This document shows, one piece after another, positions 753 to 64,000 of a stretch of DNA of 64,000 bases. A program made the position numbers and the translations under genes. Origin of the DNA: Octopus vulgaris (taxonomy: Eukaryota). Positions within the stretch are counted from its first letter, which is position 1, and every line of letters starts with the position of its first letter. The notes under the pieces were generated by a model. That model was not told the origin of the DNA. It made no database searches and was given only the letters and a program-made list of their open reading frames with translations. Location of the stretch: positions 26,102,001-26,166,000 of the forward strand of contig OX597819.1 of NCBI GenBank assembly GCA_951406725.2. Direction: 5' to 3'.

Positions 753-1046
753 ATGAATATGGTACTTATTCAGATGAATAATTAAGTTTAAGCGAACAGA
801 ATTTTGTATGGCATTATCCATATAAATCAAATGGGGTGATTATAATCAAAATAAGCAACAGAGATATCCAAGTTCGAGTAGTACAATTGTTTCATGCTGC
901 ATCATTTTATTAAACACTGTAAGTATTACATCAGTTCTCAAATGTCGAGCAAACTTCAATCACATACAGAATTTTCCAATTAAACGAACAATGCACGGCG
1001 AGGTTAATTTCATTCTTTAGAAGATGATGGTAGTATGTTCATTCTC

Positions 1047-1090
1047 CCTAGAAGGCACATAAACAGCCAGAACGGGTTTTATATAAAAGA
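1047..1090 (-). mobile_element. Helitron 5' terminal fragment
   Basis: cctagaaggcac...cagaacgggttttatataaaaga is a close reverse complement of 47-90. Confidence 0.7.
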
Positions 1091-1235
1091 TATATAAGAA
1101 TGGAATGAACATACTACCATCATTTTCTTAAGAATGAAATTAACCTCTCTGTCTACATATATACTCTCTTTGTAATATTGGCAAATGAAATATGGATAAG
1201 AATGTGCATTGTCCGTTTAATTGGAAAATTCTGTA

Positions 1236-1323
1236 TGTGACTGAAGATTGCTCGACATTTTAAAATTGATGTAATACTTACTGTGTTTAATAAAATTTGG
1301 TAGCATGAAACAATTGTACTACC
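1236..1323 (+). ncRNA. Type I hammerhead ribozyme-like motif (degenerate stem I)
   Basis: CTGAAGA 1241-1247, stem II tgct/agca around a long loop, GAAA 1307-1310, palindromic stem III CAATTG, GTA triplet. Stem I pairing is poor. Confidence 0.5.
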
Positions 1324-1509
1324 CTACCTTCGCTATCCTTGTTGCTTATTTTGATATATATATATATATATATATATATATGTTTCAGTCATTTGACTGG
1401 CATCATACTGGAGCACCACTTTGTTTGAAGAATTTATTCGAACAAATCGACCTCATTTGTGTTATTCTGAATCTGAAACTTACTCCATTGTATTCTTTTG
1501 AGAATCAAC

Positions 1510-1710
1510 GCACACACACACACACGCACACACGCACACACACACACACACACACACGCACACACACACACACACACACACACATACCCATATATACATA
1601 CACATATACAGATAGATAGATAGATAGATAGATAGATAGATACATGTACATATATAAATATACTTATACATATATATACATACAAAAACATATGCATATA
1701 CACACACATA
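1510..1710. repeat. (CA)n, (GATA)n and TA-rich microsatellites
   Basis: Visible tandem runs. Confidence 0.9.
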
Positions 1711-2080
1711 TTTTCCCTCTGCTACACTCTAAATTATAGTAGGCTTATTAAGATATACATTATTTTGCCACAGATATAACATAAGGAAAAGAAAGTTATT
1801 AGTTTGGTTTGATTTTATTTATGTAAATTTGTTTCAAATGATTTATCTTTTATGTTTGAAATCTATATGGTCATCTTTGTTGAAGAGAGAGGTTTATTTG
1901 AAATTGATGTAATGTTTTTATTGATCAATTACATGGAGCCGCTTGAAACGGCCGTAATGCATTGACAGCTGTACATCCTTGTTAGTTATTTACATTCTGT
2001 CAATCTAACTACGAGCTGTGCTGACAATACCGAATTGGCAAGGTGCTTCAATTTAAGTACCTAATCCAACTGAATCTTAT

Positions 2081-2182
2081 ACACACACACACACACACAC
2101 ACACACACACACACACACACACACACACACACACACACACACACACACACACACACACATATATATATATATATATATATAT
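2081..2182. repeat. (CA)n(TA)n microsatellite
   Basis: Visible tandem runs. Confidence 0.95.
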
Positions 2183-3454
2183 TTACAGTGAAAGCGCACA
2201 ACCAGTCGTTGCATCAAGAAAAAGTAGAGGGAGGGTTTATTTGTGAAGTTAGATAATTATTTACTTTTGAGGGAACAATTATTGTTAATGTAGGCCACAG
2301 TGTCGTGGTGGTAGTCGATTAGACCATACCAGCACGTTATCTTATGAACGTAGGAAAAATGAAAAGCAAAGTTGACTTCGGTAGAATTTGAAGGGAGAAA
2401 ACATTCCACAGAATATTTTCCCTACGTCTGAAAATTCTTTCAAGCCAGTGCTTTTACGTTTGAAGTAATTATAGAATAGAAGTAAGGACATAAATTTAAA
2501 AAAAAAACCACCTCAATATTATCCTTGGGAATCTGTACCTTGCCTTTTAATAATGTGTTGCTGATTGAAATTTTGCTAAGATTAAGTTTAGCTTTTCTAA
2601 GCTATTTAATTGTTAAATATTGTCTGACATGTTAAGCAAAGGAATTTAAAGCTTAATTTTTGTGAAGACATTGATTTATGAGAAAAGCGAACAAAAAAGA
2701 TATAAATATATACAAGATACTGAAACTAATTATCATAGAAACGCTAATGTGGAAGATAAATCTTAGCGGAATTCTATTTAAATTATGATAAAATAAATAA
2801 AAAATAACTATTTCAGAGGTGAGTTGAGTGGCGAGAATGTCTATCCTTCTTAATCTTTACCGTATCAATATACTCAAAAGCTCAAGTATGCTCATGTTTT
2901 TCTAAGATTTACCTAATTCCATGCAAAGAGAATCACATTAACGCTTGAATGGCCGACACATGATGCACGTGTATGTACATGTGAAAATCATATAGTAAAA
3001 CAATAGTTATGTGTAAGGTGATTTTAATAATAAAATTTAGATCGCCACGCTTTCCTGCACACCGTAGAATTTCAAATAAAATTATACACTGTTGCAAATT
3101 TGCATGCTTATGACGTATTTCCAAAAAAACTTAATGAGAAAAATATTACAAAACTTATAAAGTTTGAAATATTAGCTAACAGTAGCCAAAGGAAACCGTG
3201 CAAATCCTATAATTGTACGAGAATGGATATTATAGACCATGAGGTGTGGGAAATATTGATTTATTGAAGACATTATGGTATCAAAGGTCTCCGAGCAAAA
3301 AACTAGGATCATCATGTACACTACCACAACATATAACGATTAACATTGGACCCCTACAGAACTGTCTACAGAGCCCGAGACGTAAGGCGCCACTGCTAGC
3401 AGTGAGGTTTAAGGAGTTAGTAAAGTGAATGAAGAAGAATGGGGTATATTCTTT

Positions 3455-3849
3455 TCTACTCTAGACACGAGGACCAAATATTTTGGGGAGTGGGGCCAGT
3501 CGATCAAATCAACCCTATTACCCAACTGGTACTTAATTTATCGCTCCCGAAGGGATGAAATGCAAAGTCGACCTCGGCGGAATTTGAACTCAGAACGTAA
3601 CGGCAGACGAAATGCCTATTTCTTTACTACCCACAAGTGGCTAAATATAGAGAGGACAAACAAGGACAGAGAAACGTATAAAGTCGATTACATCGACGCC
3701 AGTGCGTAACTAGTACTTATTTAATCGACCCCGAAAGAATGAAAGGTAAAGGCGATCTCGGCGGAATTTGAACTCAGAACGTAACGGCAGACGAAATACG
3801 CCTACGCATTTTACCCGGGGTGCTAACGTTTCTGCCAGCTCGCCGCCTT
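3455..3849 (-). mobile_element. Family C SINE composite: young monomer (3615-3849) joined to the 3' part of an older relative (3455-3614)
   Basis: Minus-strand head aaggcggcgagctggcagaaacgttagc. The central gtcgactttgcctttcatcc...gtcgat...aagtaccag-type block (resembles the Nin domain, from recall) occurs twice. Confidence 0.85.
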
Positions 3850-61706: not shown

Positions 61707-61867
61707 TATTAACGTTACATTTACAGATTCTCACTCTGACTGATCGAACAAATGATAGATCATCGTCGAAAGACACCGGAAAACCCATCACTCTTGTATG
61801 TATGTATATATATAAATATATATATATATATATATATATATATATATATATATATATATATATATAT

Positions 61868-61925
61868 ACCTGAGTAAACACATAAATGTGAAACAAGGTG
61901 GAAGAAAAGAGTACTCTTTAAATAA
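61868..61925 (+). mobile_element. Fragment of the element at 26385-26459
   Basis: gagtaaacacataaatgtgaaacaaggtggaa.aaa.gagtactc is shared and also follows a (TA)n run. Confidence 0.75.
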
Positions 61926-62543
61926 AGTATATATATATATATATGTGTGTGTGTGTGTGTGTGTGTGTGTACGAATACACATCAAGATCAGTAGAATTTG
62001 TGTGAATGTATGTATCTTTGTATATATCTACATACGCATGGATGTAAATATGTAAGTGTGTTCGTAAGCATGTGCATGTGTGTTTTATAATGTCTCTGCA
62101 AGCTATGAGCTCGTGACGTCCAATTGTCTGAATCTTTATCAGATAACCAATTTGATATGCGGAGAATCGCTGCATTCTGTGAATAAGAATTGCTAGGTGT
62201 CACTAAGAAACAAAAATCATCATTTAATGTTGCACTATACACAAACACGCTGACACACAACGGATTTACATATTACAACAATAATATTATTATCAGCGTT
62301 TCTATGATATTGGCAAAAGTAGAACGATGAGTGCTCAACACTGCAATGGTGGATAAATGCCTTGATTCTCAAATAAATAAATTATATGTATGTATGTGTG
62401 TGTGTATCTAAGTTTGTATGTATGCATATATGTAGGTATACATATGTATGTATGTATGAATGTATGTATGCATGTATGCATGTATATATATATATATATA
62501 TATATATATATATATATATATATGTGTGTGTGTGTGTGTGTGT

Positions 62544-62890
62544 GGAGGCGCAATAGCCCAGTGGTTAGGGCATCGGACTCGCGGTCGTAGGATCGCGGTT
62601 TAGATTCCCAGACCGGGCGTTGTGAGTGTTTATTGAGCGAAAACACCTAAAGCTCCACGAGGCTCCGGCAGGGGATGGTGGTGATCCCTGCTGTACTCTT
62701 TCACCACAACCTTCTCTCACTCTTACTTCCTGTTTCTGTTGTACCTGTATTTCAAAGGGCCGGCCTTGTGTCACGCTGAATATCCCCGAGAACTACGTTA
62801 AGGGTACACGTGTCGTTAATTTCACGAGCAGGCTGTTCCGTTGATTCGGATCAACCGGAACCCTCGTCGTCGTAACCGACGGAGTGCTTC
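62544..62890 (+). mobile_element. Chimeric SINE: family B head and body with family D tail
   Basis: B-like up to about 62722. From about 62738, gttgtacctgtatttcaaaggg...ccctcgtcgtcgtaaccgacggagt matches the reverse complement of 9473-9655. Confidence 0.88.
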
Positions 62891-63042
62891 CATCCCATAC
62901 ATATATATATATATATATATATATATATATATATATATATATAACGAATGGTTTACACCTGGTTTTTTACTGGTAAAGCACGGTCACTTTCAAAGTGATC
63001 GTTAGGTATATAGAAGAAGATGGAATATACGAGAATTTATTA

Positions 63043-63148
63043 ATCACGACAATTGTTTCGATACATCTAGCATCAATTCCTGTTGGGTGGGACACTCAAC
63101 AACTGATTCAGGAGCATCCAGTGGTGCAGATGTATCTCGTCGGGTGAT
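63043..63148 (-). ncRNA. Type I hammerhead ribozyme motif with long stem II
   Basis: Minus strand: atcac-CCGACGA-gatacatct...agatgtatc-GAAA-caattg-TC-gtgat. Stems are perfect; one core substitution. Confidence 0.7.
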
Positions 63149-63302
63149 AAATAAATACAACTCGGTAAAATGACTGTTCCGCTATGTAACTTACCGTTTT
63201 GTAGAGAGAAAATCAGCCAGTGGGAGGAAGTATCCTGCTTTTCTCTCTACAAAACGGAAAGTTACATTGCGGAACAGTCATTTTAACGAGTTGTATTTAA
63301 TT

Positions 63303-63383
63303 ATCATCTGGCGAGATACATCTGCATTACCGGATGCACTGAATAGGAATAGATGCTAGATCTGTCGAAACAATTGTCGTGAT
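63303..63383 (+). ncRNA. Type I hammerhead ribozyme motif with long stem II
   Basis: atcat-CTGGCGA-gatacatct...agatctgtc-GAAA-caattg-TC-gtgat. A different single core substitution. Confidence 0.65.
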
Positions 63384-64000
63384 TAATAATAAATTCTCTC
63401 TATTTGGTGCAATCCTATCTCCTTTTTGTTCTCAGCTAAATTCTAAATGTACAATGAATTTGTATAATATTAATCGTTATTAAGACACGTAACCTAGTTT
63501 CTAAGTGGCTGAGCACACGATCGTTAAATCAGGGGGCCTCGATTTCTCGACTGGGTGACTGCGTTTTTCCAGGAGCAAACTTCTTTATTTCACTTTGGTG
63601 CAGTATACCCTACTGAAAAAGAATACTATCAGTATCAGTTGGCCCCTTCTCCGGGGAGTCCGTGATTAACATAAATTAACATAAATCTCGATCTTATGAA
63701 CTTGTAAGCACGAAACAGACTGTATATCAACCCTTGCACTGCTTACTTTAATAAAACGGTGGGCTTCCTGAAGCATTGATAGATTATCAACAAACGTGAA
63801 TTGAACTATTTAAGTACCTCATCTTACATGGCCGACTTTGCCTTACATCACGAATGTTTCACTAGACTTGTAAATAAGTGTTGAGCTACATTTAATGAAA
63901 TATACTATCCTCTAAAATGTTTAAATTTATGGTAAAGCCAGAAATAAATCTTCTCTTAAGTAAGTTGGATCTAGATTGACAGAAACGTTTAGAGTATCTT

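Follow-up and report, generated by a model that had tools for sequence, protein, structure and literature searches.

Four hammerhead-bearing palindromes in an Octopus vulgaris locus as probable by-products of Penelope-like element insertion

Four palindromic fold-backs with outward-facing hammerhead ribozyme motifs lie in a 64,000-nucleotide stretch of the Octopus vulgaris genome (assembly GCA_951406725.2, contig OX597819.1, positions 26,102,001 to 26,166,000; the window), raising the question of whether such fold-backs are a mobile class of their own or are left behind when another element inserts. A preliminary description of the locus proposed a distinct class of mobile hairpin retroelements lacking open reading frames (ORFs), with routine inverted Penelope insertion scars as the alternative. 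From the window and from copies sought across the 2.8-Gb assembly, we conclude that the fold-backs, here named E1 to E4 in window order and given in window coordinates, are very probably insertion by-products of Penelope-like elements (PLEs). Each palindrome reads, with good confidence, as a head-to-head pair made up of a tailed PLE pseudo-long terminal repeat (pLTR) and an inverted copy of that pLTR lacking the tail, a one-off insertion product into (TA)n. The junctions, the one-sided tails, and the multi-copy PLE arms fit the second of the two earlier proposals, whereas the first is not supported, with centres that vary between loci in E1, E2, and E4, and E3 palindromes that behave as independent products.

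Self-blast recovered all four fold-backs at approximately the positions first reported, each within or adjoining (TA)n, in a window of 33% G+C that is rich in such repeats. No extended similarity connects them, with blastn matches in none of the six pairs of E1–E4, and their hammerheads face outward as described, on the plus strand in the right arm and the minus strand in the left. The earlier coordinates, however, left out the left-arm tails of E1, E3, and E4, the corrected extents being ~751–1355 for E1, 35853–36306 for E3, and 62943–63398 for E4. All four elements are asymmetric, with the left arm alone extending outward into a family-specific 3' tail of ~80–90 nt in E1, 73 nt in E2, 27 nt in E3, and 88 nt in E4. 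The paired parts of the arms are 93% identical in E3 and 90% identical in E2 (self-blast), and the arms of E1 and E4 differ by indels of 24–70 nt. The inverted arm begins at the tail boundary, the junctions carry short microhomology or fillers, and target-site duplications are unreadable in the (TA)n flanks. As a separate observation, the tailed arm lies on the minus strand in all of E1–E4, for which the chance is 1 in 8.

The suggested link to PLEs is borne out, with each arm being the pLTR of a multi-copy PLE family and with whole reverse transcriptase (RT) and endonuclease (EN) ORFs linked to the arms of E2 and E3. The tailed arm of E2, which has copies matching at 99% across the genome, shares together with its tail 99% identity with the 3' terminus of a PLE encoding a 711-aa ORF, and direct pLTR pairs ~3.35 kb apart flank this ORF at three places, in two of which it is intact. 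Among the best 40 copies scored of 1243 candidates in the search with the E2 tailed arm, five other loci are short palindromes and the others match one arm at a time. The 711-aa ORF carries the motifs RWK (37), DKT (113), YRDD, CRLC (667), and CRH (695), and ends in an endonuclease-like part without CCHH but with CxxC and CxH near the C-terminus; its linker reads CxFX5C in loci L031 and L033 and FxFX5C in L032, compared with the CxCX5C of Hydra elements. These features suggest that the E2 parent is a Hydra-type PLE. The E3 parent, seen as a 770-aa ORF upstream of the arm in locus L169, carries GLKF (54) and DKG (158), with CX4CxxC (650) before and YVGQT (700) in GIY-YIG, and appears to be a Neptune-type PLE, not formally separated from Nematis; both clade assignments are made by motifs rather than from an RT tree. 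For E1, 6 of 20 long copies carry a Hydra-like endonuclease end with an intact CxCX5C upstream of the arm, and for E4 such an end, again with CxCX5C intact, lies upstream of the arm in L104 (E 2.3e-6), with similar peptides in L105 and L109. Endonuclease fragments in L113 and L043 were rejected as parents, as their homology to the region upstream of the arm stops after ~70 nt. That four unrelated PLE families share one architecture follows from its being common to PLEs.

The unequal ends of the palindromes also bear on a possible origin at the DNA level, either as foldback transposons or elements like the miniature inverted-repeat transposable elements (MITEs), or through inverted duplication of solo pLTRs after insertion. 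Such an origin could draw on the uniform ends of E3 copies in TA and on one local inverted duplicate of E2. This piece, at 25424–25615, sits 770 bp from E2 in inverted orientation, has an A-run centre, shares both breakpoints and a variant with E2, and is, from these features, likely a local inverted duplicate of it. We nevertheless consider a DNA-level origin very unlikely. In contrast to MITEs and foldback transposons, E1–E4 have one-sided tails, and their arms also occur alone or in front of RT/EN ORFs; of 71 palindromic loci in the E3 lineage set, 68 were parsed, with a tail on one side in 62, on both sides in 1, and none scored in 5. Furthermore, nothing in a DNA-level duplication would make it end at the tail boundary in each of four families.

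A mobile unit should show a common centre across its copies, however centres vary by locus in E1, E2, and E4. The junctions of E1 and E4 differ between loci, with the three E1 palindromes found by exact pattern having three different centres. The inner breakpoints of E2 copies spread over more than 1 kb and its short palindromes have differing junctions, and of 15 inverted E2 segments that end inside the locus, 11 have their outer end at one and the same reference position, the tail boundary. Microhomology of at least 2 nt was found in 13 of 16 clean junctions, compared with 19% expected (p 1.4e-7), in a test that omitted 37 of 53 junction rows as containing fillers or being too diverged, with a few rows representing doubtful junctions. 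Separately, one arm ends at reference base 3141 in five of seven short E2 palindromes, a set biased towards the query, which may point to a defined 5' end of the RNA in E2 as well.

E3 differs in having a fixed centre. The same centre was found in 36 of 36 best-scoring copies, three with small insertions, in a set biased to the shape of the query, and the view of E3 as a mobile unit with a fixed centre was abandoned once this score bias had been corrected by pattern counts. A pattern consisting of the hammerhead alone gave, in the first 30 E3 loci, 14 read-through copies, 7 solo arms, and 5 fixed-centre palindromes, the remainder being two rows of one rearranged fold-back, one truncated locus, and one masked locus, and no direct hammerhead copy lay within 1.5 kb in any of 30 E3 loci. 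Exact patterns at the E3 boundary gave 76 fixed-centre palindromes, 123 read-through copies, and 91 solos, all 91 beginning at the boundary site directly after (TA)n. The expectation of a shared centre and ends is thus upheld in E3 as far as the fixed centre is concerned (76 loci), but the centre is also the 5' end of solo arms and probably represents a favoured template 5' end. Four long inverted E3 copies (L164–L167) each have one tail and differ in their breakpoints.

The site itself reads ACAGTC and lies ~30 nt behind a TATA-like TATTTAA, suggesting a transcription start at ACAGTC. Centre variants with GACTGT-G in place of the parent's next base, found in 4 of 50 listed loci, would place the 5' terminus of the template at the A of ACAGTC. 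A splice-acceptor reading of the boundary (CTACAG) was set aside, as solos keep CAG or AG. In contigs from four sequencing runs, DNA depth was higher downstream of the E3 boundary and one contig of presumed RNA origin began near it, an observation given no weight, as contigs reveal neither starts nor levels. For a solo E3 arm inserted in (TA)n, TATA-like DNA lies ~30 nt ahead of the start site, and such solos might transcribe themselves in the manner of a short interspersed nuclear element.

The number of E3 loci with the same centre and ends, at least 76, is one ground for regarding the fixed-centre palindrome as a mobile ORF-less hairpin, copied by a Neptune-type RT from a hairpin RNA with a free tail. 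Consistent with this, the predicted fold of the long hairpin leaves the tail outside, and 24 of 59 palindromes fall in a subfamily (B, below) that is young and almost free of variation and has few copies of the read-through kind (1 of 18). The composition of the palindromes makes such a hairpin improbable, however. They fall into two subfamilies, A and B, with both arms of a locus carrying the same allele (T60C in both arms of 24 of 24 carriers), and a mobile hairpin would require at least four masters, one for each combination of two subfamilies and two centre bases. Neither the tailed nor the inverted side is set apart by a variant of its own, and left and right alleles differ in at most 5 of 59 loci, near the arm ends. 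No trace of editing was found, with adenosine-to-inosine type changes at 23/6444 compared with 23/6352 in the control (seven palindrome arms and three others being excluded for short length or misalignment). Solo arms with the haplotype of the palindromes are abundant, with 22 B and 5 A among solos and 17 A and 1 B among read-through copies, and subfamily B is young, nearly invariant, and made up mostly of solo arms and palindromes (e.g. L195–L210 and L226–L252). The coincidence of the centre with the solo 5' end, and the different behaviour of E1, E2, and E4, also argue against a mobile hairpin. The idea of an ORF-less spreading unit survives for E3 in altered form: the unit is a single arm of ~240 nt (in subfamily B, 22 of 27 solos) and not the hairpin, suggesting that in E3 it is the arm that moves.

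A route to an insertion by-product of this kind is suggested by work on an anole PLE protein, which in vitro nicks and extends both target strands, with reverse transcription starting at two sites that bracket the tail (PMC11167929). In the mechanism proposed here, the PLE protein would nick both strands of a (TA)n target, and two complementary DNAs (cDNAs) would be primed, one at the end of the tail and the other at its boundary, on a template that may be a short pLTR RNA or a 5'-truncated longer RNA. Both cDNAs would extend toward the RNA 5' end and their 3' ends would join by microhomology, producing a head-to-head inversion with a single tail and an inverted arm whose start coincides with the tail boundary. 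For E3, a short RNA would start at ACAGTC and both cDNAs would end in ACTGT-3', ends that can self-pair through 4 bp around a T-T mismatch, with repair or replication of the mismatch leaving either A or T at a fixed centre. E1, whose 5' end ACAGAC cannot self-pair, has no fixed centre. A related process is known in L1 elements, where twin priming joins two target-primed cDNAs by microhomology and gives a 5' inversion. The parts joined in L1 do not overlap, in contrast to the present case, in which both cover the same pLTR and a palindrome results.

The E3 centre carries the mark that such a joining step would be expected to leave. Relative to the tail, the centre is A in 33 and T in 27 of the 60 one-tailed loci with a one-base centre (binomial p 0.52), with A:T ratios of 18:17 in subfamily A and 15:9 in subfamily B (n=59, Fisher p 0.44), and 17:8 among 25 loci with identical inner arms. 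Overall we lean slightly towards the two-cDNA joining step, and give an even chance to the further proposal that E3 is a natural fossil record of PLE inverted-end formation, in which the nearly even A/T centre of 60 loci represents a resolved T-T mismatch. A variant of the mechanism with two different source RNAs per insertion found no support, as the variant block of the window's E3 is unique and discordant arms at minor sites could be due to mutation.

The same by-product could also arise if a single cDNA or an antisense template snapped back and primed itself; the E3 centre would then begin as a single base, to be flipped afterwards through recombination or a switch of template from arm to arm. 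This route is possible but the less likely of the two. Arms that share source variants agree with it, as do palindromic junctions, the published argument for self-priming (PMC3846280), and a slight excess of A in the youngest E3 loci. Snap-back at GAC-N-GTC, however, requires a 1-nt loop and yields one base, yet T is found in 8 of the 25 loci with identical inner arms, and frequent exchange between arms has left no sign, with none of eight private variants common to both. Snap-back alone also leaves the stop of the inverted arm at the tail boundary unexplained, a stop that matches the second RT start site of the anole protein (PMC11167929).

Several observations weigh against the reading of the palindromes as joined cDNA products, in addition to the junctions omitted from the microhomology test. 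The DNA searches limited to the best 40 copies are biased toward copies with the shape of the query. Pfam gave no match in the E2 parent ORF, its matches in the E3 parent (RVT_1, E 3.6e-4; GIY-YIG, E 2.6e-4) are both weaker than the curated cut-offs, and for E1 and E4 endonuclease-end fragments were found but no complete parent ORF. In the lineage test, the A or B subfamily shared by both arms fits arm-to-arm copying as well as one RNA read twice, and the youngest loci lean to A (20:11 at no more than one arm difference, compared with 7:7 at three or more; rank test p 0.15), such that later flipping of the centre may contribute. The block of variants in the inverted arm of the window's E3 is unique in the genome, leaving a second template there unsupported, and the proposed transcription start at ACAGTC draws on sequence motifs and copy ends.

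The paired outward-facing ribozymes follow from the structure, since the pLTR carries a hammerhead and the pLTR is inverted; on the sequence evidence, the hammerheads are passengers of the pLTR. Each arm had been thought to contain the pattern CUGANGA…GAAA…UH. The literal CUGANGA is present in five of the eight arms, but a full type I descriptor (stem I of at least 4 bp, C[UC]GANGA, stem II, GAAA, palindromic stem III, H), tuned and relaxed after the motifs were already known, is satisfied in only four, namely E2 left, both arms of E3, and E4 left. The E1 left core reads UUGAAGU and an A-C mismatch closes stem I of E1 right, the cleavage site of E2 right is removed by a 3-nt deletion, and the E4 cores read CCGACGA on the left (U4C, the majority form of that family) and CUGGCGA on the right. 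The window contains five descriptor matches, the four arms and the E2-family piece at 25495, compared with a mean of 0.01 in 200 dinucleotide shuffles, and the descriptor is passed by 19/30 family arms of E1, 26/26 of E2, 70/88 of E3, and 9/31 of E4. In each of the four families the majority hammerhead conforms to the pattern, each time with a different sequence. A search of Rfam (E≤1) gave no hammerhead family among the 150 matches listed of 182, but only microRNA (miRNA) matches driven by microsatellites.

Some details recur between families. The E1 (1241–1318) and E3 (36134–36168) hammerheads share CUGAAGA-U-UGC…GCA-U-GAAA, with U-U at 10.1/11.1, although the families are unrelated, and the stem III sequence ACAAUUGU is common to E1 and E4. 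The closing pair G10.1–C11.1 occurs only in E4, with U-U in E1 and E3 and A-A in E2, and loop II is 50–60 nt long in E1 and E4. U4C is the majority core in E3 subfamily B (CCGAAGA) as well as in E4, two unrelated families. In seven of eight arms the single hammerhead shows no better fold than its shuffles, with E4 left at z -3.0, and the folding energy is uninformative, as expected for dimer-type motifs. The proposal of a long hairpin with sequestered ribozymes stands as the predicted fold of a read-through transcript only: read-through E3 RNA is predicted to form one long hairpin (-287.7 kcal/mol, z -40) in which both ribozymes are buried and the tail stays outside.

Both components of this arrangement, the inverted pLTR with a one-sided tail and the opposite-strand paired hammerheads, are already published, and E1–E4 are no new class. 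PLE insertions with an adjacent inverted 5'-truncated copy, a one-sided tail, and (TA)n targets are described in PMC8557442, where their formation is listed as unresolved, and pLTRs inverted head-to-head, with junctions that are palindromic and with TATA/initiator motifs, are described for rotifer PLEs in PMC3846280, where self-priming on an antisense template was proposed, with no test. E1–E4 resemble these EN+ (endonuclease-bearing) PLE insertion units in the head-to-head inverted pLTR, the tail at one end, the (TA)n target, and the pLTR hammerhead, as well as in palindromic junctions and a TATA plus initiator-like motif in the pLTR (PMC8557442, PMC3846280). They differ in being the shortest cases and ORF-less, in having tails of 73–90 nt in three Hydra-like families compared with the published 30–40 bp, and in the fixed one-base centre of E3 with its A/T split, of which no description was found in the parts of those papers drawn on. 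The new part is this central base of E3, A or T (33:27) in both subfamilies.

Minimal hammerheads with low dimer cleavage are known from the pLTRs of metazoan PLEs, and dual minimal hammerheads ~100–700 bp apart on opposite strands from Schistosoma mansoni (PMC4209133). The present motifs share with these a stem I of 4–5 bp, a palindromic stem III suited to dimers, and core variants, and the opposite-strand pairs of E1–E4 lie 100–360 bp apart. They differ in the G10.1–C11.1 pair, highly conserved according to PMC4209133 and present here only in E4, in the long loop II of E1 and E4, and in the U4C majority of E4 and of E3 subfamily B. Non-LTR retrozymes are likewise ORF-less, PLE-derived, and provided with type I hammerheads, however retrozymes are defined as direct tandem arrays (bioRxiv 10.64898/2026.07.22.740005), whereas E1–E4 are single inverted pairs or solo arms.

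The parents of E1, E2, and E4 resemble the Hydra clade (PMC8557442) in RWK, DKT, the lack of CCHH, and the C-terminal CxxC and CxH of the E2 parent, and in the CxCX5C linker of the E1 and E4 fragments, the (TA)n target, and the hammerhead. The E2 parent departs from this clade in its CxFX5C/FxFX5C linker and in a unit of 3.35 kb, compared with the published 'generally <3 kb'. The E3 parent resembles the Neptune clade in GxKF, DKG, the CX4CxxC linker, and the (TA)n target, and in CCHH-type cysteines and histidines around a C-terminal GIY-YIG. Recently active Penelope families are listed in an octopus (PMC13282606), the passages on Penelope in that paper containing nothing on palindromes or hammerheads. 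A literature search for PLE twin priming or palindromic non-autonomous PLEs found none, though older papers and the supplements of PMC4209133, PMC8557442, and PMC11167929 may hold such descriptions.

Short PLE insertion products can pass for MITEs, for miRNA hairpins, or for a new hairpin retroelement. The nearly self-complementary 5' end of the E3 RNA leaves a countable mark that separates two-cDNA joining from snap-back. If the joining mechanism is true, self-priming on an antisense template would give way to twin priming in a duplicating form, and the 5' bases of the pLTR RNA would decide whether a family makes fixed-centre palindromes. Dozens of near-perfect 215-bp E3 inverted repeats could also yield double-stranded RNA if read through. 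The features of the four fold-backs and of the additional E2-family piece are collected in Table 1.

Table 1. Window positions of the parts of E1–E4 and of the additional E2-family piece
Feature	Positions	Strand	Basis
E1 3' tail (~80 nt in the family), on one side only, here with a short local duplication	751..844	-	Alignment of 29 loci, motif positions
E1 tailed pLTR arm with ~70-nt deletion; hammerhead 878-963, mutated core UUGAAGU	845..1046	-	
Filler at the E1 junction, 89% similar to window 27-90 (opposite strand)	1047..1107	.	
E1 inverted tail-less pLTR arm	1108..1355	+	Alignment of family loci
E1 right hammerhead: core CUGAAGA 1241-1247, long stem/loop II, GAAACAAUUGUA 1307-1318, stem I mismatch		+	
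Additional E2-family piece: short arm, A-rich centre, 39 nt of long arm	25424..25615	+	
Intact hammerhead in additional E2-family piece	25495-25466	-	
E2 3' tail, ~73 nt	26385..26457	-	Mapping to full-length element L032
E2 tailed pLTR arm; complete hammerhead pattern 26524-26495	26458..26609	-	
E2 A/T-rich filler (~11 nt) and inverted tail-less arm	26610..26748	+	
E2 right hammerhead, damaged by 1-nt and 3-nt deletions	from 26687	+	
E3 3' tail, 27 nt	35853..35879	-	
E3 tailed pLTR arm of putative Neptune-type PLE; complete hammerhead pattern 36047-36013	35880..36090	-	
E3 fold-back centre, one base, T in element sense	36091..36091	.	
E3 inverted tail-less arm; complete hammerhead pattern 36134-36168	36092..36306	+	
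E4 3' tail, ~88 nt	62943..63030	-	Alignment of 30 loci
E4 tailed pLTR arm; hammerhead 63143-63048	63031..63234	-	
E4 left hammerhead: core CCGACGA, 10-bp stem II, palindromic stem III, GUC site	63143-63048	-	
E4 inverted tail-less arm with 24-nt deletion; core mutated to CUGGCGA at 63308-63314	63235..63398	+	

The E1 filler of ~60 nt matched only window 27–90 among 191 loci compared, and this source-like stretch sits ~660 bp outside E1; the filler may have been inserted during repair from a nearby template, or may belong to some other repeat. An AT-rich 5-nt repeat in the E3 arm is expanded to several hundred bases in three loci (L168:1676-2573, L169:4773-5414, and L170:6531-6860). A short stretch of the window at 47439–47579 resembles the N-terminal part of the E2 parent protein, at 47% over 47 aa (E 1.9e-6), and belongs to a different Hydra-like PLE. 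Further fold-backs, absent from the preliminary description, lie at 29926–30339, 44185–44400, 24148–24372, 42511–42551, and 45987–46725, among them a common repeat present as an inverted pair (93%) that flanks a TA core and a ~215-bp palindrome of unknown family, with the remaining ones being weaker.

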